From positions 15,518-79,517 of the forward strand of contig CAWCVB010000015.1 of the NCBI GenBank assembly GCA_963798915.1: a DNA stretch of 64,000 nt, read 5' to 3'. The stretch's first letter is position 1, and every line of letters starts with the position of its first letter. The notes under the pieces are model-generated. The model made no database searches. It had not been told where the DNA came from and saw only the letters and a list, made by a program, of their open reading frames with translations. The translations under genes were made by a program, and so were the position numbers. This DNA comes from an uncultured Gemmatimonadales bacterium. Its GTDB lineage: Bacteria; Gemmatimonadota; Gemmatimonadetes; Gemmatimonadales; GWC2-71-9. Below, one piece after another: positions 3,204 to 46,437 of this stretch.

Positions 3204-4242
3204 CCTAGATTCACAAACGAAGTGCAACACCTTGGGGGTGAGGTGTTGCCATGGGCGCTCATTACACGCAGTTCACCCTCGAGGAGCGGTGCACCCTGGC
3301 CCGTCTGCAGGCCGCCGGGCGCTCGCTCCGCCAAATCGCAGCAGCTCTGGGTCGCGCGCCATCGAGCGTGGCTCGGGAAGTGAGGCGCAATATGGGCCGC
3401 CAGGTCGGCTATGCCCCCGCGTACGCCGAGCAGCAAGCCCGGGCCCGGCGCTGGCACGGCTTGCGCCTGGAGCGCGATCCGGCCCTCCAGGACGACGTGC
3501 TGGAGCGCCTGAAGGCCGGCTGGTCGCCGGCCCAGGTCGTGGGGCGGCTTGCCCGCGAGGCGGGCCATGCGGTGCTCAGTCACGAGACGATCTACCGCTT
3601 CGTGTATGCCCAGATCCGCCGCACCAACGACTACACCTGGCGGCACTACTTGCCCCGCGGCCAAGAGTCGCCGCGGCTGGCGCGGGCGCAAGGGGGGCTC
3701 GCCGGCCGAGCACATCCAGGGCCGGGTGGGCATCGCTGAGCGCCCGGCCGCGGTCGCCACCCGCAGCGAGGCGGGCCACTGGGAGGCGGATCTCATGCTT
3801 TTTGCCCGCTACGGCCAAGCCGTGTTGACGATCCACGAGCGCCAGTCGCGCTTCCTCTGGCTGCACCGGCAACCGAGCAAGGCGGCCGCCCCCGTGGCGC
3901 AGGCGCTGCGCGGCTTTTTCGGGTCCCTGCCGCCGAGCCTGCGGCAGAGCGTGACCTTTGACAACGGCACCGAATTCGCCCAGCACCGGCAGCTCCACTC
4001 CCTGGCCATGCGGACCTATTTCTGTGATCCGCATGCCCCATGGCAGAAGGGTGGCATCGAGAACGCCATCGGCCGGCTGCGGCGCACCCTGCCGCGCAAG
4101 ACCGACCTCGCCACGCTGACCGCGGCGGCGCTGGACCGGCTGGTCCTGCGGCTACAATCACACGCCACGCGCCTGCCTCGACTTTCAGACCCCCGCCGAG
4201 GTCTTTGGCGCTCAGCTGTTGCACTTCAACTGTGAGTCCACC
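3204..4242 (+). mobile_element. IS30-family insertion sequence (~1039 bp) with probable 3-bp target duplication TTC
   Basis: Terminal IRs TAGATTCACAAACGAAGTGCAACA (3206-3229) and TGTTGCACTTCAACTGTGAGTCCA (4217-4240), 19/24 identical; TTC at 3201-3203 and 4243-4245. Confidence 0.9.
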
Positions 4243-4316: not shown

Positions 4317-5735
4317 TTACCGCACCCGCTCGGCCACGACCACCCGGTCCCTGCCCTGCTCCTTGGCCTGATACAGGGCCCGATCCGCCTGTGCCGGCAG
4401 GTTGTCGATGGCGCGGCTGGTTTCCGGGCACGCTGCCACACCGAGCGACGCCGAGAGCGCCGGGGTACTGCCCTGCCACTCCCAGGGCCGGGACACCAGT
4501 GCCGCCCGGATGCGTTCGGCAATCACGCGGCCGACCTCCAGCGAAGCGTCGGGCAGCCAGACGACGAACTCCTCGCCGCCGACACGCGCCACCGTGTCCA
4601 TGCTGCGCACCTGATCGCGCAGCAGGGCTGCGAGGTGCACCAGGGCAGAGTCCCCGGCCGCGTGCCCCAGGCGGTCGTTGATCTTCTTGAAGTGGTCCAG
4701 GTCAATGGCGATGACCGCGCCACCCGCCAGCTTGGCCCGATGCATGGCGCGCTGCAACTCGGCGCGGTTACCGAGCCCGGTAAGCGGGTCGCTGAAGGCG
4801 CCCCGCTCGCTGATCTCATGCTCCTGGGCAATGTCGAGTCGTGTCCCTGCTTCCCGAATCGATTCCCGGATTTCGGCCAGGCGGCCGCCGATAGGTTCCA
4901 CCCCTCCGGGCAACCAAAGTGCCACGGCCCCGCAGACTCGCTGTGCGCGGCCGATGATTGGCTCCAGCTGGACCAGGACCGGCCGCTGGCGCCGATCCGT
5001 TGTCGTGCCGCCCAGTGGATCGCCGCGAACGGTCATGCCGTCCATGGTGCCGCGGAGGACCTTGTCCAGATCACAGTCGGGCGGAATGATTTTGTTCAGC
5101 AGCCGCCGGTCTCCGTGTCCCGACACGCCGACAATCCGGGCTCCGTCCGGATCTGCCGACGCGACAATCACGGCGCCATTGGTGGTCCGTTCGAGCTGGT
5201 AGGCAAGCCGAAGCCCAACACTGCCCACCGACTCGATGGCTATTCGATCGGGGCGGGCCTGCGCGAATTCGACCACCTCCGGGCGCCGCTTGAGCCCCTC
5301 CAGGAGACGATCGAGATCCTCCGTAACCTCGGGACTCGGGGTTGCGCCGGCCGGCACCAGCAACGCGACGGCGAAGCGGTTGCTGCTGCGGATCACGAGT
5401 GTGCCGGCCTGCAGCCGCTCGACGCCGCTACGCTCACTGTCGCGAGCGGCCTCGACCCGGCGGTCCAGGGCCACGACGACATCGACGGCCAGGCGGTCCG
5501 CGTCGATCACGCGTTCGATGATCGGTTCGTCATCACCGACGGCTCGCTCGGACAGCCAGACGCCCAGGGCAGTGTGGGCCCGGAGCAGCCAGCGAAGGGC
5601 GGGCTCCGGCAGCAGTTCCGGGCCGGCCGTGGCCCGCGTGGCCAGTCCGGTGTGCGTGGCTGCACGTCCGAATCGCCGGTGCGCAAACCACCCAGCGAGG
5701 AGGCCGACCAGGAGCGTCAGGAGAAAGGGTGTCAC
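4317..5735 (-). CDS. Membrane-anchored diguanylate cyclase (GGDEF domain)
   Basis: N-terminal TM segment; DPLTGLGNR, DLDHFKKIND..GHAAGD, RxxD I-site (RSMD), intact GGEEF, ADRALYQAKEQGRD. Confidence 0.93.
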   Translation of the reverse strand: MTPFLLTLLVGLLAGWFAHRRFGRAATHTGLATRATAGPELLPEPALRWLLRAHTALGVWLSERAVGDDEPIIERVIDADRLAVDVVVALDRRVEAARDSERSGVERLQAGTLVIRSSNRFAVALLVPAGATPSPEVTEDLDRLLEGLKRRPEVVEFAQARPDRIAIESVGSVGLRLAYQLERTTNGAVIVASADPDGARIVGVSGHGDRRLLNKIIPPDCDLDKVLRGTMDGMTVRGDPLGGTTTDRRQRPVLVQLEPIIGRAQRVCGAVALWLPGGVEPIGGRLAEIRESIREAGTRLDIAQEHEISERGAFSDPLTGLGNRAELQRAMHRAKLAGGAVIAIDLDHFKKINDRLGHAAGDSALVHLAALLRDQVRSMDTVARVGGEEFVVWLPDASLEVGRVIAERIRAALVSRPWEWQGSTPALSASLGVAACPETSRAIDNLPAQADRALYQAKEQGRDRVVVAERVR

Positions 5736-6478
5736 GCCGAGAGGATGCGGCTGGCCGCGACGGCGGCGCCGAAGCCATTGTCAATGTTGACCACGGTCAC
5801 GCCGGAGGCGCAGGAATTCAGCATGCCGAGCAATGCCGCCACGCCACCGAAGGACGCGCCGTATCCCACGCTCGTCGGCACCGCGATCACCGGCTGCGGC
5901 AGCAGTCCGCCGACCACGCTTGGCAGCGCGCCTTCCATGCCAGCCACAACAATCACCACATCCGCGGCGCGCAACCGCTTCTCCTCGGCGAAGAGCCGAT
6001 GCAGCCCGGCGACACCAACATCCACCAGGCGCTCCACTCCATGCCCGAACGCCTCGGCCACGGCCGCCGCCTCTTCCGCCACTGGCAGGTCGCTGGTGCC
6101 GGCACACACGACGGCGATGCTGCCGATCCGCTCGGCCGGCGCGTGGGCCTCAAGATACGCCACACGCCCGGCTTCGTTCCATTGGAGCGTGGGATACTGC
6201 TGTCCCAGGAGCGAGCGCTGCTCCGCCGTCACGCGGGTTGCGAGAAAGCCCCCGGTGGCATGCTCGAGCCGTTGACAGATGGCGAGGACCTGCCCGGCGG
6301 TCTTGGCGTGGCAGAATACGACTTCCGGCCGACCCTGGCGGAGCGCCCGATGATGGTCAATGGTGGCGAAGGGAAGCTGTTCAGAGGGGAAATAACGTAG
6401 CTGTTCGAGTGCAGCCGACACACCTAGCTGCCCGGAGGCCACTGCGGCAAGCAGCTCGGACAGCGCCGATGGCGTCAC
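5732..6478 (-). CDS. larB: LarB-family NaAD carboxylase/hydrolase (nickel-pincer cofactor biosynthesis)
   Basis: DHHRALRQGRPEVV, AGTSDLPVAEEA, DVGVAGLHRL, VAGMEGALPSVVGGL, PTSVGYGA, NIDNGFGAA; GTG start overlaps the dusB stop. Confidence 0.9.
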   Translation of the reverse strand: MTPSALSELLAAVASGQLGVSAALEQLRYFPSEQLPFATIDHHRALRQGRPEVVFCHAKTAGQVLAICQRLEHATGGFLATRVTAEQRSLLGQQYPTLQWNEAGRVAYLEAHAPAERIGSIAVVCAGTSDLPVAEEAAAVAEAFGHGVERLVDVGVAGLHRLFAEEKRLRAADVVIVVAGMEGALPSVVGGLLPQPVIAVPTSVGYGASFGGVAALLGMLNSCASGVTVVNIDNGFGAAVAASRILSA

Positions 6479-10440: not shown

Positions 10441-11993
10441 TACTCCCATTCAATCGTCGCCGGCGGTTTCGAGCTCACGTCGTACACGACTCGGTTGACG
10501 CCATCCACTTCATTGGCGATCCGATTGGAAATGTGCGCCAGCACATCCGGTGGAAACGGAAACCAGTCCGCCGTCATGCCGTCCCGGCTGGTGACGGCAC
10601 GGAGCGCGATGACCTGGTCGTAGCTCCGTTCGTCCCCCTGCACCCCGACCGAGCGGATGGGCAGCAGCACCGCGAAGGCCTGCCAGATGTCGTCGTAGAG
10701 GCCGGCAGCGCGGATTTCCTCGATGTAGATCGCATCGGCCCGCCGAAGGGTGTCGAGTGCAGACGCGTTGACATCTCCCAGGATCCTGATGGCGAGGCCA
10801 GGCCCGGGAAAGGGATGCCGTCCCACCATCTCCTCCGGCAAGCCCAGCTCACGCCCGACCTGACGAACCTCATCCTTGAACAGTTCGCGGAGCGGCTCGA
10901 TCAGCTTGAACGGCAACCGCTCCGGCAATCCGCCCACGTTGTGGTGGCTCTTGATCGTGACGGACGGACCACCCATGGGCGAGACCGATTCGATCACGTC
11001 CGGGTAGAGCGTGCCCTGCACCAGGTAGGCCACCTCACCATCCACGGAACGTGCTTCCGCCGCGAACACGTCGATGAAGGTGTGACCGATACGACGTCGC
11101 TTGAGCTCCGGGTCGGTCACATCGGCAAGCTGGGCCAGGAACTGCTGGCTGGCATCCACCACCCGGAGATCGATGCCAAGATTACTGCGGAACGCCTGCT
11201 CCACCTGCTCGCGCTCGTGCAGCCGGAGCAGGCCATGGTCCACAAAGATGCAGGTCAGCCGGTCGCCAACAGCGCGATGCACCAGTGCTGCCGCCACCGC
11301 GCTGTCCACCCCACCCGACAGACCGCAGATCACCCGCTGGTCGGGCCCAACCAGCTCGGCGATGCGGGCCACTTCGCGATCGACAAAATGTCCCGGCGTC
11401 CAGTCGGGCGTGCATCCGCAGATATCGAAGATGAAAGCCGAGAGGATCTCGCCTCCCCGCGGCGTGTGGGCCACCTCGGGATGGAATTGGACACCGAACA
11501 GTGGCCGTGATTCGTGCTCGATGGCGGCAATCGGAGTGTTGGGACTGCGGGCCACCACCCGATAGCCGCGCGGGGCCGCATCGACGTGATCACCATGGCT
11601 CATCCAGACCGGTGTTTCCTCGCCAGCAGCAAAGCTCCGCAACAGCCGTCCACCATCTGTGCGAATCATCGCTCGGCCGTATTCCCGGCGCGAGGCGCGC
11701 ACCACAGTCCCACCGCTCAACTGCGCCAGCAGCTGCATCCCATAACAGACGCCGAGAATCGGGATGCCCAGCTCCAGCAGGGCCGGATCGGCCGTCGGGA
11801 CGTTGTCGCCGTAGACCGAGTTGGGCCCGCCGGACAGAATGATCCCCCGCGGCTGCCAGTCCCGAATCCAGTCAATCGCCCGGCTGGGTGGGTGAATTTC
11901 GCAGTAGACGTGGGCCTCGCGCACGCGCCGGGCGATGAGCTGCGTGTATTGCGAGCCGAAGTCGATGATCAGGATGCCTGGCTCATGTGCCAT
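10440..11993 (-). CDS. guaA: GMP synthase (glutamine-hydrolysing)
   Basis: [51 protein letters not shown]. Confidence 0.98.
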
Positions 11994-13326: not shown

Positions 13327-14756
13327 ACGGCCTCCGCCACGCTGGGGCGATCGCACCAGGTGCAGCGCTCGGGCGCCGGGGTCGACTGAAATTCCGGATC
13401 AGGGAGCACCCGGATCGTTGCCTTGGTCTGCTCCTTGATCTCTGCCTCGCAGGCGGGATCACCACAGAAGCCGCCATACACGAACCCGCCCTCGCCGGCC
13501 ATGCGCTCGATGAACTGTGCCTTGGTCGCTCCCCGAAGGCTGGCCGCCTCGCGGCGCGCGCGCGCGGCCTCCAGCAGCGCGGCCTGCATGGCGTCCATTT
13601 CCTGCTGCAGCCGCTTGGCAATCCCCACGAGCGAAACCGGCTCTTTCCGGCCGCCCGTTCGACGGGCCAGCATCACCGATCCCGCGGCCAGATCCCGAGG
13701 CCCGATCTCGAGACGGAAGGGAACGCCCCGCGCCTCCCATTCGTAGTATTTTGCCCCGGGCTTCAAACCATCGCGATCATCAAGGTGAGTGCGGATCTGC
13801 GCCGCGCGCAGATCGTGCAGGAGCGCCCGCGCGGCAGCGGTCACGGCCTCCTGCTCCTCTCCGGTCCGGTAGATTGGCACGATCACCACCTGCCACTGCG
13901 CCAGCCGGGGCGGACAGATCAGGCCCTGGTCGTCGCTGTGGGTCATGATGAGCGCTCCCACCAGCCGGGTCGAGACGCCCCACGACGTATTCCATACGTG
14001 ATCGAGCCGCCCATCGGCGGTCTGGTAGGTCACCTCGAACGCCTTGGCAAAGTTCTGGCCCAGGTTGTGACTGGTGCCCGCCTGCAGGGCTCGGTTGTCC
14101 TGCATCAGTGCCTCGCAGGCATAGGTCCGCAAGGCCCCCGCAAACCGCTCACTGTCGGTCTTCCGGCCGGTGAGGACCGGCATCGCCATCCATTCCTCCA
14201 TGAAGGTCCGGTAGAGGCCAAGGATCATGAGTGTTTCCGCCTCCGCCTCCGCTTCGGTTGCATGCGCCGTATGGCCTTCCTGCCACAGGAACTCGGTGGT
14301 GCGCAGGAAAAGCCGTGTCCGCATCTCCCACCGGACGACATTGGCCCACTGGTTGATCAGGAGCGGAAGGTCGCGGTAGCTCTGGATCCACTTGGCATAC
14401 ATCGCGTAGATGATGGTTTCCGACGTCGGCCGGACTACCAGTGGTTCCTCGAGCTCCTTGCCGCCGCCAATGGTGACCACGGCCGTCTCAGGCGCAAAAC
14501 CCTCGACATGCTCGGCCTCGCGCGCAAGAAAGCTCTGCGGGATGAAGAGCGGGAAGTACGCGTTCTGATGCCCGGTGTCCTTGAACATCGTATCCAGTGC
14601 CCGCTGCATCTGCTCCCAGATCGCGTAGCCGTTGGGGCGGATGACCATGCACCCGCGCACCGGGCTGTAGTCGGCCAGCTCGGCCTTGGCGATGACATCG
14701 TTATACCACGCACTGAAGTCTTCGGCCCGCGTGGTCAGCGCCTTCTCTTGCGACAT
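13308..14756 (-). CDS. proS: Proline--tRNA ligase, archaeal/eukaryotic type
   Basis: RPTSETII, QWANVVRWEMRTRLFLRTTEFLWQEGHT, QAGTSHNLGQNF; C-terminal domain ending AKAY; no INS editing domain. Confidence 0.97.
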   Translation of the reverse strand: MSQEKALTTRAEDFSAWYNDVIAKAELADYSPVRGCMVIRPNGYAIWEQMQRALDTMFKDTGHQNAYFPLFIPQSFLAREAEHVEGFAPETAVVTIGGGKELEEPLVVRPTSETIIYAMYAKWIQSYRDLPLLINQWANVVRWEMRTRLFLRTTEFLWQEGHTAHATEAEAEAETLMILGLYRTFMEEWMAMPVLTGRKTDSERFAGALRTYACEALMQDNRALQAGTSHNLGQNFAKAFEVTYQTADGRLDHVWNTSWGVSTRLVGALIMTHSDDQGLICPPRLAQWQVVIVPIYRTGEEQEAVTAAARALLHDLRAAQIRTHLDDRDGLKPGAKYYEWEARGVPFRLEIGPRDLAAGSVMLARRTGGRKEPVSLVGIAKRLQQEMDAMQAALLEAARARREAASLRGATKAQFIERMAGEGGFVYGGFCGDPACEAEIKEQTKATIRVLPDPEFQSTPAPERCTWCDRPSVAEAVWAKAY

Positions 14757-19599: not shown

Positions 19600-21491
19600 T
19601 GGGGCGGCTCCAGCGGCACGGTGTCGGGAGAGGTCGTAGTCGGCGCCACGACCCGCCGCCCGCCGCTGTCGTTGATCTCAACCGGCAGGGGCGCGCTGTC
19701 GCGGATGAAAGCCGATGGTGGCGGCGTGTTCTCCTGCGCCTTCGTCGTGTCCGGGCCAAGCACGTAGCGGGCCAGCACCTTGCTGACGTAGGGCCCGACC
19801 ACGGAACCATGTTCGGCGGCCTCCATGATGCCCCCGACCACAATCACCGGCTTGTCGGCCGGCGCAAAACCGATGAACCACCCATGGTCCTTCCCGTGGG
19901 AATTCTGGGCCGTGCCGGTCTTGCCTGCGATGAGCAGGCCCGCCTGACGAGAGCGGGCGCCCGTCCCCTGCTCGAGCACCGCGATGAGCGCGCGTCGCAA
20001 CGCGTCGAGTTGCTCGGGTGTGAGGCCAAGCTTCAGCTCGGCTTCCCCGGGCCGGGGCCGGACCACGAACGGCGGCACCTCGGTCCCGTCGCCGGCGAGC
20101 GCCTGGTAGAACTGGACCATGTTGATCAGCGTCTGGGTGTTCTCACCCTGGCCGATCGAGAAGTTGAGCACCGTCGCCGGCGGGCTCCAGTTGCGCGGAC
20201 CGTAGTGCTTGTCGAAATATTCATAGCTGGCGGGATAGAGCGATGCCTGCTCGCTCGGAAGATCCACGCCGGTTCGGCCGCCGAAGCCCATGGCGACGCC
20301 GTCGCTCAGCAAGTTGTCCAGGCCGAGCTTGAGGCCAAGCTGGTAGAAATAGACGTCGCAGCTCTGGGCCACCGCGCCGATCAGGTCCAGGCTCCCGTGA
20401 CCGTCACGCTTCCAGCATCGGAAGATGCGATTCCCGAGACGATAGCCGCCGGTACATGGCTGCGGCATGTGCGAGTGCAGGTCAATGAGCCCCCTCTTCA
20501 GGGCCATGGCCGCGGTCGCCAGCTTGAACGGAGACGCTGGCGGATACCCGCCATTGATGGCCCGATTGAGCAGCGGCTTATCGGTATTTTCGTTGAGGGC
20601 CCGCCAGTCCGAGGTCGATATGCCGCCCACAAACAGGTTGGGATCGTAGGATGGCGCCGAATACAGCGCCCTGATTTCCCCCTTGGGCGTCATGGCGATC
20701 ATCGCACCGCGAAACTCCGCCGGCCAGATGCTGTCAATGAAACGCTGCAGCGGCAGGTCAATGGTGGTGACGAGCGGGTTGCCGGGCTCGGGCGGCAGGA
20801 GCGCGGAGCCGACATTCTCTCGCACCAGCCTTCCCCGGGCATTCACTTCGACGTAGCGCACCCCTGCCCTGCCACGCAGGACCGAGTCGTACTGCCGCTC
20901 CAGTCCCGACTTGCCGACAATGGATCCAGCCTCCGCGCCCGGATATCTGTCGTTGTCCAGGTCGCGCTCCGTGACTTCCCCCACATACCCGACCAGGTGC
21001 GCTACGGCCTTGCCGTAGGGATAGAAGCGCTTCGGCTCCGACTGGATGATCAACCCGGGCAGCAGTGCACGGCGCTCTTCGAGTCGGGATACCGTCTCGA
21101 AGGTCGCATCCCCAAAGACCACGACTGGCTGGTAGCGCGCCACCCGCCAGCGCCGCTCGATATCGATCATGGTGCTGCTGTCGAGCGGTACCACGCCGGC
21201 AAACCGTTCCAGCACCGCGGCGAGGCTGTCGCGCGATGTCGCGAACAGCTTGACCGCAAATCCCGGAAGGTTTTCGGCGATAGTCTGCCCGTTCCGATCG
21301 AGAATGGCGCCCCGTGGCGGCTCCAGCGGGATGGCCCGAAGCCGGTTGGTCTCTGCCCGCAACTGGTACTTGTCGTGCTGGAGGATTTGCGTCCGGAAGA
21401 AGGCACCGATCAGCAGGGCAAAAGCCAGCGAGAGTACCCAGCGCGCGCCGGAAGCCCGCCGCCGTACCTGGTAGGAGTCAAAACCGTTCAT
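19596..21491 (-). CDS. mrdA: Penicillin-binding protein 2
   Basis: PPRGAILDRNG, GKSGLE, SxxK (SPFK), SCD, KTGTAQ; mre operon context. Confidence 0.95.
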   Translation of the reverse strand: MNGFDSYQVRRRASGARWVLSLAFALLIGAFFRTQILQHDKYQLRAETNRLRAIPLEPPRGAILDRNGQTIAENLPGFAVKLFATSRDSLAAVLERFAGVVPLDSSTMIDIERRWRVARYQPVVVFGDATFETVSRLEERRALLPGLIIQSEPKRFYPYGKAVAHLVGYVGEVTERDLDNDRYPGAEAGSIVGKSGLERQYDSVLRGRAGVRYVEVNARGRLVRENVGSALLPPEPGNPLVTTIDLPLQRFIDSIWPAEFRGAMIAMTPKGEIRALYSAPSYDPNLFVGGISTSDWRALNENTDKPLLNRAINGGYPPASPFKLATAAMALKRGLIDLHSHMPQPCTGGYRLGNRIFRCWKRDGHGSLDLIGAVAQSCDVYFYQLGLKLGLDNLLSDGVAMGFGGRTGVDLPSEQASLYPASYEYFDKHYGPRNWSPPATVLNFSIGQGENTQTLINMVQFYQALAGDGTEVPPFVVRPRPGEAELKLGLTPEQLDALRRALIAVLEQGTGARSRQAGLLIAGKTGTAQNSHGKDHGWFIGFAPADKPVIVVGGIMEAAEHGSVVGPYVSKVLARYVLGPDTTKAQENTPPPSAFIRDSAPLPVEINDSGGRRVVAPTTTSPDTVPLEPPH

Positions 21492-26985: not shown

Positions 26986-29073
26986 CTACTCCTTGGGAAG
27001 GAGCGCCTTCCGGGAGAGCTTCATCCGGCCGCGTTCGTCGACCGACAGCAGCTTGACCTGGATGACGTCGCCCGCCTTGACCACGTCCTCGGTCTTCTCA
27101 GTGCGCCCGTGCTGGAGCTCACTGATATGCAGCAGTCCCTCGACGCCCGGCAGGATTTCCACGAAGGCACCAAACGGTGTGGTGCTCTTGACCGGGCCCT
27201 CGTAGACCTTGCCCACCTCGGGCTCGGTGGTGATGGCGGCGATCATCTCCCGCGCCTTTTCGATGGTCTCGGCGCCAACGCCTGCGATGGTGATCACACC
27301 GCTGTCTTCGATCGAGATGCGCGCGCCGGTGGCGTCCTGGATGCCACGAACGGTCTTGCCCTTCGGCCCGATGACATCGCCAATCTTGTCCGGCCGGATC
27401 TGCATCGTGACAATCCGCGGGGCATAGGGCGAGAGATCCTGTCTCGGCGCGGCCAGTGCCTTCTTCATTTCGCCGAGAATGTGGAGCCGGCCCGCCCGGG
27501 CCTTCTCGAGCGCCTGCTTCATGATGGCCAGATCCAGTCCCTGGATCTTGATATCCATCTGGATGGACGTAATGCCCTTGTCGGTTCCGGCGACCTTGAA
27601 GTCCATGTCGCCCAGGTGATCCTCGGAGCCAAGGATGTCGGTCAGGATCGCGACCTTCTTCCCGTCCTTGATCAGGCCCATCGCCACACCGGCGCAGGCC
27701 GCCTTCATCGGCACGCCCGCATCCATGAGCGCCAGCGACCCTCCGCAGACCGTTGCCATCGAGGAGGAGCCGTTGGACTCCAGGATCTCGGAGACCACGC
27801 GCAGCGTGTACGGGAAAGTGTCGTAGTCCGGCAGCAGCGGCTGGAGCGCGCGCTCCGCCAGAGCACCATGGCCGATTTCGCGTCGGCTGGTGCCGCGGAT
27901 CATCTTGACTTCACCCGTCGAATAGGGCGGGAAGTTGTAATGGAGCATGAACGACTTGGTGGTCTCGCCCGCGACATCGATGTTGTCGAGCCGCTGCTCG
28001 TCGTCGGCGGTCCCAAGGGTGACGCTCACCAGGGCCTGGGTCTCTCCCCGCGTAAAGAGGGCTGAGCCGTGGGCCCGCGGCAGCACGCTGGTATCGATGC
28101 TGATCGGCCGCACCGTGTCAGTGTCGCGCCCGTCGACCCGCTCGCCCTTGTCCAGCACCTGGGAACGCATGACACGGTACTCGATCTCCTCGAGCTCGTT
28201 CACGATTTCCTTCTGCCGGTCGGGCCACTTCTCCGCCAGTGACGTGAGCACGTCGTCGCGCACCACACGGAGGCTTGCTGCCCGGCCGCTCTTCTCCTTG
28301 GCATTCATCGCGCTGGTGACCTTCTTCTCCGCCAGCTTGCGAACCGCGGCGGCCAGCTCGGCATCGGCCGCGGGCGCCTTCCACTCCATCTTGGTGGGCG
28401 TTGCCTTGCTGACGAGCTTCTTCACGACGCTGACCAGCTCGGCAATACCCTTCTGGGCGACGCCCAGGGCCTCGAGCATTTCGCTTTCCGGGACCTCGAG
28501 CGCGCCACCTTCCACCATCATGACCGAGTCGGCGGAACCGCTGACCACGAGATCGATGTCGGAGAACTCGAGCTGCTGGAAGGTCGGATTGAGGATCCAG
28601 TTGCCGTCCACCCGGCCAACCCGCACCGCGGCCAGGGGTCCATTCCAGGGCACCGTGCTGAGGGTCAGCGCGGTGGAGGCGGCGATCAGCCCCACGATGT
28701 CCGCATCGTTTTCCTGGTCGGCCGAGAGCACGGTCACAAAGACCTGCACTTCGTTCTTGAACCCTTCAGGAAAGAGCGGACGAATCGACCGGTCGATCAG
28801 GCGCGCCGCCAGAATTTCCTCATCCGAGGGCCGGCCTTCACGCTTGAGGAAGCCGCCCGGGATCTTGCCCGCCGCGTAGGTCTTCTCGCGATACTCGACC
28901 GTCAGCGGGAAGAATGGCAAGGCGGAGATGTTGGCGGAGACGGTCACGGCGGCAAGTACCTGGGTCTCTCCGAACTGGAGCAGCACGGCTCCCGCGGCCT
29001 GCTTCGCCATCCGGCCGGTTTCCAGCGTCAGCGGGCGTCCCGCGAATTCGGTTTCGATCTTCTGCATGCTCAC
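26986..29073 (-). CDS. pnp: Polyribonucleotide nucleotidyltransferase
   Basis: AGKIPGGFLKREGRP, RREIGHG, ESNGSSSMA, EDHLGDMDFKVAGT; KH and S1 domains. Confidence 0.98.
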   Translation of the reverse strand: MSMQKIETEFAGRPLTLETGRMAKQAAGAVLLQFGETQVLAAVTVSANISALPFFPLTVEYREKTYAAGKIPGGFLKREGRPSDEEILAARLIDRSIRPLFPEGFKNEVQVFVTVLSADQENDADIVGLIAASTALTLSTVPWNGPLAAVRVGRVDGNWILNPTFQQLEFSDIDLVVSGSADSVMMVEGGALEVPESEMLEALGVAQKGIAELVSVVKKLVSKATPTKMEWKAPAADAELAAAVRKLAEKKVTSAMNAKEKSGRAASLRVVRDDVLTSLAEKWPDRQKEIVNELEEIEYRVMRSQVLDKGERVDGRDTDTVRPISIDTSVLPRAHGSALFTRGETQALVSVTLGTADDEQRLDNIDVAGETTKSFMLHYNFPPYSTGEVKMIRGTSRREIGHGALAERALQPLLPDYDTFPYTLRVVSEILESNGSSSMATVCGGSLALMDAGVPMKAACAGVAMGLIKDGKKVAILTDILGSEDHLGDMDFKVAGTDKGITSIQMDIKIQGLDLAIMKQALEKARAGRLHILGEMKKALAAPRQDLSPYAPRIVTMQIRPDKIGDVIGPKGKTVRGIQDATGARISIEDSGVITIAGVGAETIEKAREMIAAITTEPEVGKVYEGPVKSTTPFGAFVEILPGVEGLLHISELQHGRTEKTEDVVKAGDVIQVKLLSVDERGRMKLSRKALLPKE

Positions 29074-42322: not shown

Positions 42323-43877
42323 TCAGAGCGGGATGTTTCCGTGCTTCCGGGGCGGATTCCGGTCGCGCTTGCCGCTCAGGGTCAGCAGGGCCTCGATCAG
42401 CCGGGGCCGGGTGTCCCGCGGATCAATGACATCATCCACATAGCCGCGCTCCGCTGCCGCATATGGGTTGGCGAACCGGGCCACGTACTGCTCAGTGAGA
42501 CGCGCGGCCTCGGCGGCTTGGATCGGCGGCCTCGGCGATTTCCTTCCGAAACAGGATTTCAACGGCGCCCTTGGGCCCCATCACTGCGATCTCCGCCGCC
42601 GGCCACGCAAAATTGACGTCGCCCCGGATGTGCTTGCTGCTCATGACGTCATACGCCCCGCCATAGGCCTTGCGGGTGATCACGGTCAGCTTGGGAACGG
42701 TCGCTTCGCAGTAGGCGTAGAGCAACTTGGCGCCGTGACGAATGATGCCGCCGTGCTCCTGGGCCACGCCAGGCAGGAACCCCGGGACATCCACCAAGGT
42801 GACGATCGGAATATTGAAGCAGTCACAGAACCGAATGAACCGGGCGGCCTTGGTGCTGGCATTGATGTCCAGCACGCCGGCCAGGACCGCCGGCTGATTG
42901 GCGACGATCCCAACCGGTCGTCCCAACAGCCGACCAAACCCCACCACGATGTTATCCGCGAAGCCGGCATGTACCTGGACGAAGTGGCCGTCGTCCACAA
43001 CCGGGCGGATGATATCCAGCATATCGTATGGCTGCGCCGCGGCGAGGGGCACGACATCGAGCAGGCTCTCCTCCCGGCGTTCGGCGGAGTCGTCGGTCGG
43101 CCGGATCGGAGGAGCGTCGACATTGTTGCCCGGCAGAAATCCCAGCAGTTCGCGGATGGCCTGCAGCGCCGCCGGTTCGTTGTCGTACGTGAAATGCGAC
43201 ACGCCGGAGACGGCCCCGTGCACGTCCGCGCCACCCAGCTCGTCGAAGCTCACGTCCTCATGCGTCACGGTCTTCACCACGCTCGGGCCAGTCACGAACA
43301 TGTAACTCACCTGCCGGACCATGAAGATGAAGTCCGTAATGGCCGGGCTGTACACGGCGCCGCCGGCGCACGGGCCCAAAATGGCACTGATCTGGGGAAT
43401 CACGCCCGACGCAAGCGTGTTGCGCAGGAAGATGTCGGCATAGCCGCCCAGCGAAGCGACGCCTTCCTGGATGCGGGCGCCTCCCGAGTCGTTCAGTCCG
43501 ACCAGGGGCGCCCCGTTCCGCATGGCCAGATCCATGACCTTGCAGATCTTTTCGGCGTGCGCCTCCGAGAGGGAGCCGCCGAAGACGGTGAAATCCTGCG
43601 AGAAGACGTACACCAGCCGTCCCTCGATCCGGCCGTGTCCGGTGACGACACCGTCGCCAGGGTACTTCTCCCCGTCCAGTCCGAACTCGGTCGCACGATG
43701 GGTAACAAATCGATCCAGTTCCTGAAAGGATCCCTCGTCCAGCAGCAGGTCGAGCCGTTCCCGCGCGGTGAGCTTCCCCTTCTTGTGCTGCTGCGCCACC
43801 CGCCGCTCGCCGCCTCCTTGCTCGGACGCAGCCTGCCGGCGGTGCAGGTCGTCGAGGCGTTCTCTGGATTGGGTCAT
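42323..43877 (-). CDS. pccB: Acyl-CoA (propionyl/methylmalonyl-CoA) carboxyltransferase beta subunit with a +1 frameshift near 42518 (likely error)
   Basis: [45 protein letters not shown]-terminal RKHGNIPL in the shifted frame. Confidence 0.88.
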
Positions 43878-43950
43878 GGGCAGAATGTAGGGGAAGCCGG
43901 TGGGTGGCGCGAGGTATCGGGCCATGGCGGCCGACTCTTTCCAAAACTGC

Positions 43951-44466
43951 CAACGCAAAGACGCGGAGGCGCAGAGGTCGCGGAGGAACGCTTCGCAGCG
44001 CGTTCAAATGGCGCCCGCTCGACCCTGTGCTAAGTGTAACGTGGAGAATGTCAATCGAGTTGCCTCAGAATGCGCTCAGCCAGCGCATTATCGGCGCCGC
44101 CATCGAGGTCCACCGAATTGTCGGACCGGGGCTACTCGAGTCCGCCTACCAGCGATGTATGGAGGCCGAACTGGAGTTGCGTGGCATTCCGTTTCGGAGC
44201 GGCATTGCACTGCCGATTCACTACAAGACGCTCGAGTTCGAGAATGCCTACCGGCTGGATCTACTGATCGCAAACCAGGTCGTGGTTGAGCTGAAGTCTA
44301 TCGAGGAAGTTCTTCCCGTGCACTCCGCGCAGTTACTCACGTATTTGCGCTTAACCAGCCACAAGCTGGGGCTGCTCATCAACTTCAATGTGCCGGTACT
44401 CTGGCGCGGTATATCTCGTGTCGTCAATAATCTGTAGACTCGGCGTCCTCTGCGCCTCCGCGGTTG
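43951..44466 (+). mobile_element. Putative GxxExxY cassette bounded by inverted repeats
   Basis: CGCGGAGGCGCAGAGG (43962-43977) and its exact reverse complement (44447-44462), each with an outer CAAC/GTTG; mobility is inferred. Confidence 0.5.
44048..44437 (+). CDS. GxxExxY protein (PD-(D/E)XK nuclease-like)
   Basis: IIGAAIEVHR..GPGLLESAY, YRLDLLI..QVVVELKS, HSAQLLTYL, GLLINFN; 129 aa. Confidence 0.93.
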   Translation: MSIELPQNALSQRIIGAAIEVHRIVGPGLLESAYQRCMEAELELRGIPFRSGIALPIHYKTLEFENAYRLDLLIANQVVVELKSIEEVLPVHSAQLLTYLRLTSHKLGLLINFNVPVLWRGISRVVNNL

Positions 44467-44501
44467 ATTCCAAGGGTCCACGAAGCCGGCCTGAGCAGTG
44501 G

Positions 44502-44533
44502 AAACGAAAAAGCCCCCGATTGCTCGGGGGCTT
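44502..44533 (-). terminator. Intrinsic terminator of rpsA (possibly bidirectional)
   Basis: AAGCCCCCGA-TTGC-TCGGGGGCTT with a T-rich tail on the minus strand. Confidence 0.85.
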
Positions 44534-44553
44534 CTGCACAGCAGCCGGTTGCC

Positions 44554-46314
44554 CTACTCCGACGCGGGTGGGACAGTCTCATCCGTGGATTCCTCGCCCT
44601 CATCCCCCTCGGTGGGAATGGGTCGGGCCGCCTTGGCCCGATTGGCCGCCATTTCCTCTTCGGTGGTCTCGGGATACCCGACGACCGCGAGGACGATGCG
44701 GTGATGGATGGGATCGACTTCCAGCACTGACATGTCGACCGGCTGGCCTTCCTGCACCGCGTCGCCCGGATTCTGGACATCGGGCTTGCCAAGCTGCGAG
44801 ACGGGCACGAAGCCCTCGATGTCGTTACCCACATCCACGACGACGCCCTTGTCCATCAAGCGCAGCACGACGCCACGCAACTCCATGCCGATGGGATAGG
44901 TCTCACCGATCCGCAGCCATGGATCTTCCTGCGCCTGCTTGAGGCCCAGGCTGATCCGCTTGTTTTCGGCGTCGATATTGAGGATCAGCACCTCGACCGA
45001 GTCGCCCTTCTTCACCACTTCCGACGGGTGCTGCACCCGCTTGGTCCAGGACATGTCGGAGATGTGGATCAGGCCATCGATACCGGGCTCGATCTCGACG
45101 AAGGCGCCGAAGCTGGTGAGGTTGCGGACCTTGCCCTCCAGCCGGGTGCCGACGGGGTACTTGAGCGGCAGCACCATCCACGGGTCCTGCTCGGTCTGCT
45201 TCATGCCCAGCGAGATCTTTTCCTCGCTCTCGTCGACCTTGAGCACGACGGCTTCGATGGTCTCGCCGATCGAGACGATCTTGGACGGATGGCGGACGTT
45301 GCGGGTCCAGCTCATTTCGCTGATGTGAACCAGCCCCTCGATGCCGGGCTCCAGCTCCACAAAGGCGCCGTAGTTGGTGATCGAGACGACCTTGCCCTGG
45401 ACCCGCGAGCCCACCGGATACTTCTGGGCCACGTCCTTCCAGGGATATGACTGCAGCTGCTTCATGCCGAGCGAGATGCGCTCGCGCTGCCAGTCGATGT
45501 CGAGGATCTTGACCTCGAGCTCCTGGCCGATCTGGACCATTTCGCTGGGATGCGAGACCCGCCCGTAGGACATGTCCGTAATGTGCAGCAGGCCGTCCAC
45601 ACCACCCAGGTCGATGAAGGCACCGAAATCGGTGACGTTCTTGACGACACCCTTCCGGACCTGGCCGACTTCGAGCTCCTTCATCAGGTGCTCGCGCTTG
45701 TGGGCCCGCTCGTGCTCCAGGATCACGCGGCGGCTGACCACGATATTGCGACGCCGCTTGTTGAGCTTGATGATCTTGAACTCGTAAGTGGACCCGAGCA
45801 GGTCGTCGATGTTGGGCACCCGCCGCAGGGCAATCTGCGAACCGGGGAGGAAGGCATCGACCCCCATCAGGTTGACCACCACGCCGCCCTTGATCTTCTT
45901 GGTGAGCGTGCCTTCGACCGGCTGGTCATTCTCGTGGGCCACGCGGATCTTCTCCCAGACCCGCATGAAGTCGGCCTTCTTCTTGGACAGCACCACGGCG
46001 CCCTCGTGGTCCTCGAGGTGCTCGAGGAACACTTCGACCTCGTCGCCCTCCTTGAGGCTGCCCGGGTCCTTGAATTCGTCGAGGGGCACCGAACCCTCGG
46101 ACTTGAAGCCGACGTCGAGGATGACGGCATTATCGGTGACACGCAGCACCTTGGACTTGACGATCTCGCCTTCGACGATCTGCGACATTGTCCCCTCGTA
46201 CATCGAGAGGAGCTGTTCGTATTCGTCGTCGCTGTAGTCATCATCGTACAGGTCGGCACGGACGCGGAGGCCAGTGGGGCTGATCTTTTCGGCGGCGACG
46301 GGGGCTTGGGCCAT
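44554..46314 (-). CDS. rpsA: 30S ribosomal protein S1 (start approximate)
   Basis: Six S1 repeats: DVGFKSEG, AFLPGSQ, FGAFIDLGGVDGLLHITDMS, GIEGLVHISEMSW and others. Confidence 0.97.
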   Translation of the reverse strand: MAQAPVAAEKISPTGLRVRADLYDDDYSDDEYEQLLSMYEGTMSQIVEGEIVKSKVLRVTDNAVILDVGFKSEGSVPLDEFKDPGSLKEGDEVEVFLEHLEDHEGAVVLSKKKADFMRVWEKIRVAHENDQPVEGTLTKKIKGGVVVNLMGVDAFLPGSQIALRRVPNIDDLLGSTYEFKIIKLNKRRRNIVVSRRVILEHERAHKREHLMKELEVGQVRKGVVKNVTDFGAFIDLGGVDGLLHITDMSYGRVSHPSEMVQIGQELEVKILDIDWQRERISLGMKQLQSYPWKDVAQKYPVGSRVQGKVVSITNYGAFVELEPGIEGLVHISEMSWTRNVRHPSKIVSIGETIEAVVLKVDESEEKISLGMKQTEQDPWMVLPLKYPVGTRLEGKVRNLTSFGAFVEIEPGIDGLIHISDMSWTKRVQHPSEVVKKGDSVEVLILNIDAENKRISLGLKQAQEDPWLRIGETYPIGMELRGVVLRLMDKGVVVDVGNDIEGFVPVSQLGKPDVQNPGDAVQEGQPVDMSVLEVDPIHHRIVLAVVGYPETTEEEMAANRAKAARPIPTEGDEGEESTDETVPPASE

Positions 46315-46437
46315 GAGGGAACCACTTTCGAAGTCGGACCGCGGGCGTGGAGCCGCGGGCTGGGGTGATGCCTGTGGATGCGGAGGTGCATTCACAGGAA
46401 GCCTGAAAATATAGCGCCGACCACTGCCGATGACAAC

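Follow-up and report, generated by a model that had tools for sequence, protein, structure and literature searches.

The stretch of DNA analysed here, 64,000 nucleotides (nt) from an uncultured Gemmatimonadales bacterium and hereafter called the window, contains at positions 43951 to 44466 a lone gene for a GxxExxY protein (family PDDEXK_3) set between two inverted arrays of short repeated units. This 516-bp feature belongs to a widespread type of compact cassette that leaves hardly any space, or none, for a promoter of its own, and the inverted-array architecture is family-wide. In our judgement the chances are about even that we are dealing with a selfish cassette with non-autonomous derivatives, one that works like REPIN/RAYT systems, or like insertion sequences (IS) and their miniature inverted-repeat transposable elements (MITEs), but with a Cas4/RecB-like nuclease. 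A broader proposal, to which we would give somewhat less than an even chance, is that GxxExxY genes with heptamer-array arms make up a pan-prokaryotic and so far undescribed class of mobile cassettes that lodge in the spacers of housekeeping operons and drive a population of gene-less doublets resembling REPINs. A symbiosis of repeat and nuclease would then have arisen independently for a second time, with a nuclease that would recognise 7-nt units in tandem when the DNA is folded or single-stranded. In the literature outside subscription journals and database family notes, searches by the names of the family, by intervening sequences (IVS) with inverted repeats, by selfish PDDEXK genes in operons and by the array sequences themselves turned up no account of the arms and no function for these proteins.

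Arrays and operon settings of GxxExxY genes

An earlier note on this DNA had proposed that the flanks of other GxxExxY genes be searched for similar inverted repeats (IRs), and IRs of the same kind are indeed found there. Our sample of relatives consisted of 80 loci of about 6 kb each, taken from a scan of genome contigs and encoding proteins 47-61% identical to the window protein; Acidobacteriota, Pseudomonadota, Bacteroidota, Chloroflexota, Planctomycetota, Verrucomicrobiota, Cyanobacteriota and other phyla are represented, together with two bins carrying archaeal labels on which we did not rely. When the upstream flank was compared with the downstream flank by an ungapped score, 58 of the 80 loci scored above all 100 shuffles (49 of 80 with tighter windows), compared to 2 of 133 pseudo-genes that served as controls at a distance of 1.5-1.9 kb within these loci. 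The arms are tandem C-R-C-N-R-A-G units, most often spaced 8 nt (183 cases) or 9 nt (125) apart, and less frequently 10 (45), 11 (25) or 12 nt (6). By a strict motif, a purine-type array lies upstream of the gene in 62 of the 80 loci and a pyrimidine-type array downstream in 67, with both present in 56 and the inverse layout in 5. The commonest outer ends of the arms are TTCACC...GGTGAA or AACC...GGTT, the left-hand array mostly ending in (T)TCACC or AAC(C) and the right-hand one in GGTGA(A) or (G)GTT, and the CAAC...GTTG of the window fits this pattern. Neither array was detected by the strict motif in seven loci, of which four (L004, L043, L053 and L058) carry variant units, with IR scores of 13-32. 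The first of these, whose protein is the nearest relative of the window protein in our tree, has a perfect 32-nt IR (2915-2946 / 3449-3480) made of GGCATGTAG-type units, and here the architecture of the array is kept while the sequence of the unit drifts. In L007 a second, divergent GxxExxY copy was seen 2.3 kb from the first (5696-6073; 36.5% identity to the window protein), within its own 37-nt, 81% IR (5619-5655 / 6091-6127) of CGCCAAG-like units.

In the window, a repeat search identified two 24-nt arms (43962-43985 / 44439-44462) that are 92% complementary. The perfect 16-nt core of this IR, CGCGGAGGCGCAGAGG, is located only at 43962-43977 (+) and 44447-44462 (-) within the 64 kb, and its construction from 8-9-bp units with CAAC (43951-43954) and GTTG (44463-44466) at the outer edges is as the earlier note had read it. 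Units of the form C[AG]C.[AG]AG number four in the left arm (regular-expression array at 43954-43985) and three in the right, with a spacing of 8-9 nt. The arrangement is beyond chance: with +1/-2 scoring its IR score is 18, whereas 1000 shuffles averaged 7.9 and never exceeded 14, and the other gene-sized slots along the window (n = 123) score 12 or less.

The cassettes fit tightly around their genes. Measured over 38 cassettes whose start could be assigned with confidence, the distance from the left arm to the start codon has a median of 10.5 nt, and that from the stop codon to the right arm a median of 9 nt; the last GAGG/AAGG purine unit is often found where a ribosome-binding site would be expected, abutting the ATG in many loci. 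In the 70 loci with two neighbours, the strands of these neighbours relative to the cassette gene, as given by a crude open reading frame (ORF) caller, are (+,+) in 42 loci, (-,+) in 16, (+,-) in 9 and (-,-) in 3, the window belonging to the last and rare class. Neighbours were annotated for 40 of the 70 loci, hand-picked mostly for short distances and therefore not a random sample, and in at least 13 of these 40 the cassette separates two genes of a single operon or pathway that lie on the same strand (Table 1). Annotated records provide further cases, with arms at both, namely fabD-cassette-fabG in Sphingomonas parapaucimobilis and radA-cassette-next gene in Bacteroides finegoldii. In four Acidobacteriota loci (L009, L012, L017 and L019) the cassette sits directly upstream of a gene for a RarA-like AAA ATPase; there the cassettes are 59-66% identical, and the ATPases 78-94%. 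That essential operons such as gatA/gatB, nuoM/nuoN and fabD/fabG are split without apparent harm bears on how well operons tolerate inserts. An integrase-domain gene lies just downstream of the cassette in L045 (3592-4866), the sole such neighbour in the 40 annotated loci.

With little T in the left arm and little A in the right, the arrays contain few stop codons. Coding sequence (CDS) calls were seen to continue through the right arm, which yields tails such as ...SSASSPPLR (L083:2971-3399, and the C-termini of P0088 and P0122), and the Sphingomonas CDS is annotated through the arm as far as fabG. The arrays account for annotation errors, in the form of CDSs extended across arms and of spurious ORFs.

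Gene-less doublets and turnover at shared sites

Some pairs of a purine and a pyrimidine array enclose no gene. The earlier note had suggested that such doublets be sought in relatives, and 27 of them, with loops of 9-224 nt, are present in the same ~6-kb loci. At distances above 600 nt from the cassette, there are 27 arrays of at least three units in 329 kb, as opposed to none in 452 kb of block-shuffled loci. In Gemmatirosa kalamazoonensis, the GxxExxY gene has a complete doublet on either side, and one of these two, 96 nt long, is present on two megaplasmids, at 39 or more sites on each. The same 96-nt doublet was found in none of the other plasmid records (72,556 searched), and the second megaplasmid gave no GxxExxY match in the plasmid scan. 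Within a locus, the arms of gene-holding and gene-less pairs resemble each other more than arms from different loci do (median similarity 0.89 vs 0.79, p = 0.013, n = 9), but in two of the nine loci the two kinds of pair have an arm in common, which makes the support weak. The gene-less doublets carry the same, genome-specific arms as the cassettes and reach a high copy number in at least one genome.

The arrangement of these doublets can be elaborate. On 40 kb of Gemmatirosa plasmid 1 (L081), array clusters recur about every 5-10 kb, and some are mosaics of alternating orientation that recall bacterial interspersed mosaic element (BIME)-like arrangements. In L014 (180-1720) there is a tandem run of at least eight gene-less doublets of ~120-145 nt, each with a purine array, an A-rich loop holding a small inner hairpin and a pyrimidine array, and the GxxExxY cassette is one member of the run. 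Genes for the four-helix-bundle "23S rRNA IVS protein" may possess arms of a similar kind; in the loci studied here, GxxExxY was the only cargo seen inside a pair of arms.

Sites occupied in more than one genome allowed the cassette to be compared with its flanks. Two Terriglobia bins (L029 and L070) agree at 84-96% of positions, counted in 50-nt windows, over some 900 nt to either side of the cassette, and identity drops to about 64-70% precisely where the arms begin and recovers where they end. Each cassette has a matching pair of termini that differs from that of the other (TCACC...GGTGA vs TTAACC...GGTTAA), and there is a 20-nt indel at the left joint. The proportion of synonymous differences (pS, Nei-Gojobori) for this pair is 0.88 in the cassette and 0.36 in the neighbour (dS 0.50), and the corresponding values are 0.82 and 0.40 for L017-L019 and 0.73 and 0.53 for L009-L017. 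In the gatA/gatB pair (L035-L066) the flanks are themselves near saturation and the comparison is uninformative. Since weaker selection on the protein sequence has no means of increasing divergence at synonymous sites, the occupants of these sites would have been inserted independently or replaced, and the saturated cassettes between unsaturated flanks point to turnover. The earlier note had held that a gene fixed together with its surroundings would speak against a mobile element, and such fixation is not simply what these sites display. Further signs of a separate history are the G+C content of the ORF, which is below that of the flanks in 76 of 77 loci (median -9 points; 55.6% for the window ORF vs 65.8% for the window), and a tree of 81 cassettes that mixes phyla (38 label changes, with a minimum of 13 and a shuffled mean of 52), although this tree has few columns, leaves 45 of its 78 inner branches unresolved and can be used to show phylum mixing only. 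Decayed copies were also seen, in that a stop codon interrupts the matched frame of L044 and of L061, and the GxxExxY match in the Gemmatirosa locus L081 is split into two high-scoring segment pairs.

The nuclease, its proposed action and competing explanations

The window protein matches PF13366 PDDEXK_3 (E 1e-39, 136 bits, cut-off 22) and TIGR04256 GxxExxY (E 2.5e-41, 140.7 bits, cut-off 35), which places it in this family. Consistent with the earlier remark that no transposase is present, PDDEXK_3 is its sole Pfam match and no further ORF fits inside the 516-bp feature. The D...ELK catalytic-type residues also remarked upon are kept as D71 and E81-L-K83, and are invariant in an alignment of 31 relatives that contains 32 invariant columns. 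The conserved positions of the window protein are E20, H22, G28-x-x-E31-x-x-Y34, D71, E81-x-K83 and Q95-x-x-x-Y99, and those of the G-x-x-E-x-x-Y motif and the D...E-x-K core (G28, E31, Y34, D71, E81 and K83) are invariant in all 31 sequences; the E...D...ExK...QxxxY pattern is that of the RecB/Cas4 branch. A profile search of the chains in the Protein Data Bank (PDB) by sequence gave no match at E <= 1. An AlphaFold2 (AF2) model built from the 31-relative alignment (pLDDT 93.7, pTM 0.86) has the PD-(D/E)XK alpha/beta fold, and its top Foldseek matches in the PDB are all PD-(D/E)XK nucleases, including Cas4 (4r5q, 4ic1), lambda exonuclease, LHK-Exo, archaeal Hjc and tRNA splicing endonucleases, all of them weak (E of at least 3.7e-3, TM about 0.5). 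Based on this model, the window protein is predicted to be a minimal PD-(D/E)XK nuclease of the Cas4/RecB/lambda-exonuclease kind, which has its best structural matches in those domains (4r5q, 4ic1 and 6m9k, weak as they are) and shares the above residues with them, but has neither iron-sulphur cluster cysteines nor extra domains.

The family is very large, with more than 8000 proteins scored and with 19,995 matches at E <= 1e-3 among the representatives of clusters formed at 50% identity; the relatives P0002-P0007 are 80-88% identical to the window protein. A table row in Steczkiewicz et al. 2012 (PMC3424549) gives the function of the family as unknown and records multiple transfers. Among the cluster representatives, the top 12 by score (P0121-P0132) are 240-295 aa long with two GxxExxY domains each, and in the three full-length proteins read (P0121, P0122 and P0123) the second domain is devoid of the D and of ExK. 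Because such fused forms with an inactive second domain resemble a single-chain dimer with one active site, their sequences suggest that the GxxExxY nuclease might work as a dimer.

In the mechanism that we propose, the nuclease, probably dimeric, would recognise the arrays as DNA, either as duplex ends or as a hairpin or cruciform of both arms, and would cut at the arrays and so move or copy the cassette. It could also act in trans on the gene-less doublets, which would then form an autonomous/non-autonomous pair with the cassette. Expression would come mainly from read-through of the host operon, with the last purine unit often serving as the ribosome-binding site.

This proposal borrows from several known systems without coinciding with any of them. 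In PMC3337134, the RAYT gene is described as flanked by inverted repeat copies and accompanied by many gene-less, genome-specific extragenic doublets with a spacer, the gene being under purifying selection and yet diverse. A short nuclease-type gene within inverted repeat copies is likewise what we find, as are multi-copy gene-less doublets in relatives, though not in the other 63 kb of the window, and to this extent the analogy drawn in the earlier note stands; the cassette is nevertheless not a member of that class, since GxxExxY is a PD-(D/E)XK protein and the RAYT is an HUH/Y1 (IS200-like) transposase, as given in PMC3337134. The GxxExxY arm is, moreover, a tandem array of heptamers that are not self-complementary, whereas a repetitive extragenic palindrome (REP) is a short palindrome, and the gene is usually held tightly inside its doublet, with no promoter space, within operons and in many phyla. 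The cassettes resemble IS and MITEs in their terminal inverted repeats with subterminal units, in having derivatives that lack the gene and in the variety of their genomic settings, but they have no transposase of a known class and no target-site duplication seen in 76 pairs, measure only about 0.45-0.6 kb, and display a strong orientation bias with host operons. Free-standing homing endonuclease genes sit between conserved genes, as in T-even phages, and are similar in being small lone nuclease genes at such places, with divergent occupants at one junction; the repeat arrays, the high-copy gene-less doublets and the chromosomal hosts from many phyla set the GxxExxY cassettes apart from them. 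Restriction-modification units with long flanking inverted repeats, which according to PMC2853133 are mobile and undergo allelic substitution at a site, provide a parallel for a PD-(D/E)XK-type nuclease as a bracketed mobile unit with allelic substitution, but GxxExxY has no methyltransferase partner, its cassette is far smaller, and its arms are arrays of units. As for the ORF-bearing intervening sequences of 23S rRNA, described in PMC4990558 as selfish inserts of roughly 0.4 kb with one small ORF and pairing ends, the likeness lies in the size, the single small ORF and the pairable ends; here, however, the cassette is located between protein genes, encodes another protein family and has arms without a wobble signature. 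An rRNA intervening sequence was ruled out, as no rRNA match was obtained in 43000-45500 or in the 10 scanned loci. An integron gene cassette, in which an attC hairpin follows the ORF and the cassettes are arrayed next to attI and an integrase gene, was also rejected, given that the arms bracket the ORF, the cassettes are single in operons and an integrase neighbour is seen in 1 of 40 loci (L045).

Whether the arms work as DNA or as RNA is a question that the earlier note had raised in suggesting an RNA whose ends pair around the ORF. Part of this suggestion holds, in that the arms are paired with each other in both the minimum free energy (MFE) and the centroid structure of 43940-44545 (z = -5.5), and given the operon context the two arms are likely to be co-transcribed. 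An RNA-level device would have the arms pair in the polycistronic transcript, either as a stem for RNase III processing, as in rRNA intervening sequences, or to hide ribosome-binding units and keep the nuclease low, with the DNA spreading by other means. Such a device would be in keeping with the paired folds, with cassettes co-oriented with operons and left with no promoter room, with last purine units that abut the ATG in many loci, and with T-poor or A-poor arrays that allow ribosomes to read through. The mismatches between the arms speak against selection for an RNA stem. They are as frequent in 27 gene-less pairs (10.4%) as in 49 gene-holding pairs (10.6%), consist mostly of A/G transitions in both directions, and on the sense strand are of the G:U type in 46 cases and of the A:C type in 58 (p = 0.28), without wobble bias. 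A selected RNA stem should favour G:U and none of this preference is seen; a DNA-level role, with ends or hairpins recognised by a protein, is therefore favoured, and RNA effects would be a side-issue or a second function. Bacteroidota make little use of Shine-Dalgarno pairing, and copies in that phylum bear the same arrays in spite of it. There is also no Rfam family match: the search of 43000-45500 returned only a sub-threshold terminator look-alike, and that of 10 loci with doublets only sub-threshold miRNA-precursor look-alikes, that is, generic long hairpins. Since the RNA-level explanation in addition leaves high-copy doublets and cassette replacement unexplained, we consider it unlikely, though it is the strongest of the rivals.

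Slightly less probable, in our opinion, is a free-standing homing endonuclease that cuts cassette-free intercistronic junctions and is copied in by repair, the arrays being merely compatible with operon life. PD-(D/E)XK is one of the folds known in homing endonucleases, the cassettes lie between conserved genes, junctions recur (trpD/trpC, carboxyltransferase/HMG-CoA-lyase-like, and upstream of the RarA-like gene), and divergent cassettes with different termini occupy the same site between flanks about 90% identical; against this, insertion sites are very diverse across the 40 annotated loci, and neither dozens of gene-less doublets nor conserved, genome-specific array arms are explained. We find it improbable, too, that the gene is an ordinary or domesticated host gene with a cellular role such as repair, with regulatory or structural arrays and with the window copy as a fixed chromosomal gene. 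Strong purifying selection (the 32 invariant columns in 31 sequences), recurrent sites within clades and the single copy in the window would agree with this, as would the precedent of RAYTs, which in PMC3337134 are single-copy, maintained, repeat-associated genes; what tells against it is a context that differs from locus to locus, synonymous saturation beside unsaturated flanks, lower G+C in 76 of 77 loci, the mixing of phyla in the tree and pseudogenised copies with internal stops (L044 and L061). A chance inverted repeat in G+C-rich intergenic DNA, for which only the high G+C content (65.8%) could be cited, was refuted by the 1000 shuffles, the 123 slots along the window, the family-wide recurrence (58 of 80 loci vs 2 of 133 control slots) and a 16-mer found only at the arms, and its probability is negligible.

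The selfish-cassette reading, which the earlier note had framed as a cassette of ~0.5 kb, thus has the family-wide IR, the gene-less doublets and the turnover on its side, and several observations must be set against it. The window copy is atypical, and no array of at least three units was found in the remaining 63 kb of the window. Inspection of the 12 nt outside the extended arms of 76 pairs disclosed no target-site duplication or target motif. The shared-site comparisons cover occupied sites only, with the best locus at 61% identity to the window protein, and recurrence within a clade (upstream of the RarA-like gene in four Acidobacteriota, at gatA/gatB in two Opitutaceae) also fits long residence. 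At least one of the neighbour strands called by the crude ORF caller is wrong (upstream in L017), and a strongly conserved protein may contribute to the lower G+C content of the ORF. No family of the PADLOC defence library matched the window protein, PHROGs gave one weak endonuclease match only (E 0.005), and a GxxExxY relative is present in 8 of 72,556 plasmid records, hence this is not a plasmid trait. Lastly, that the GxxExxY nuclease acts on its own arms is a step that we infer. In spite of these points, the conserved anatomy of the cassette gives a concrete job to PF13366/TIGR04256, a very large family of unknown function. If the nuclease does mobilise arrays, it would constitute a new class of enzyme for the propagation of repeats and a counterpart of REPIN/RAYT; as a small nuclease with specificity for sequence or structure, it might also find practical application.

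The window copy and its neighbours

The features of the window and of the loci discussed above are collected in Table 1. As the earlier note had it, a lone plus-strand gene of 129 aa lies between pccB and rpsA, all the features that it named being present; the gene runs from an ATG at 44048 to a TAG at 44435-44437. The right arm, said there to begin a few nt after the stop, begins 1 nt past it. The leader is unusually long when compared to the median of 10.5 nt in relatives, and the GGAGA at 44043-44047 is likely the ribosome-binding site.

Table 1. Coordinates in the window (plain numbers) and in the related loci (L numbers)
Feature	Position or locus	Strand	Remarks
GxxExxY / PDDEXK_3 gene	44048..44437	+	profile matches, residues, AF2 model
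Left arm	43951..43985	+	CAAC, then four purine-type units ACGCAAAG ACGCGGAG GCGCAGAG GTCGCGGAG; IR core 43962-43985
Leader	43986..44047	+	62 nt, left arm to start codon
Right arm	44439..44466	-	three pyrimidine-type units on plus strand (purine-type on minus), then GTTG
Carboxyltransferase (pccB-like) ORF	42492..43958	-	context; ORF call and Pfam
rpsA, six S1 domains	44554..46395	-	context; ORF call and Pfam; convergent with cassette gene
Perfect 10-bp hairpin	44510..44533	-	T-rich run follows on minus strand; context, outside cassette
trpD/trpC junction	L034, L048	same strand	one beta-, one zetaproteobacterial metagenome-assembled genome
gatA/gatB junction	L035, L066	same strand	two Opitutaceae
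nuoM/nuoN junction	L053	same strand	
hutU/hutI junction	L039	same strand	
2-oxoacid oxidoreductase alpha/beta-like junction	L010	same strand	
Methylmalonyl-CoA mutase small/large subunit junction	L020	same strand	
rlmB/RarA-like ATPase junction	L012, L019	same strand	
ABC binding protein/ATPase junction	L042	same strand	
Junction of two flavorubredoxin-like genes	L076	same strand	
Carboxyltransferase/HMG-CoA-lyase-like junction	L070	same strand	
Gene-less doublets (examples)	L015 2836-2968 and 4178-4301; L016 463-622; L036 3350-3420; three in L051		
Array clusters	L081 near 1700-1847, 11602-11722, 14438-14604, 19799-19873, 20385-20460, 28173-28273		

With the gene on the plus strand and both neighbours on the minus strand, the cassette is antisense to both; together with its own leader and ribosome-binding site, this makes the window copy an old or atypical insertion. 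It is the only GxxExxY gene in the 64 kb, and no target duplication, which the earlier note had likewise failed to see, was found at this copy or in relatives. An in-frame ATG at 43877 is the likelier start of the pccB-like gene, which puts the left arm in or beside the upstream region of that gene, and from its place at the end of the stretch 43878-43985, upstream of the divergent pccB-like gene, the arm could influence pccB expression. Were the TTG at 43958 the start instead, the pccB-like ORF would overlap the first unit of the left arm. A scan of 43800-44600 for promoters and terminators returned nothing, with no sigma-70-like promoter recovered by a simple scan. The hairpin downstream of the right arm is most likely the terminator of rpsA, and Rfam reports at the same place a sub-threshold BjrC68 look-alike (19.6 bits vs a cut-off of 39).

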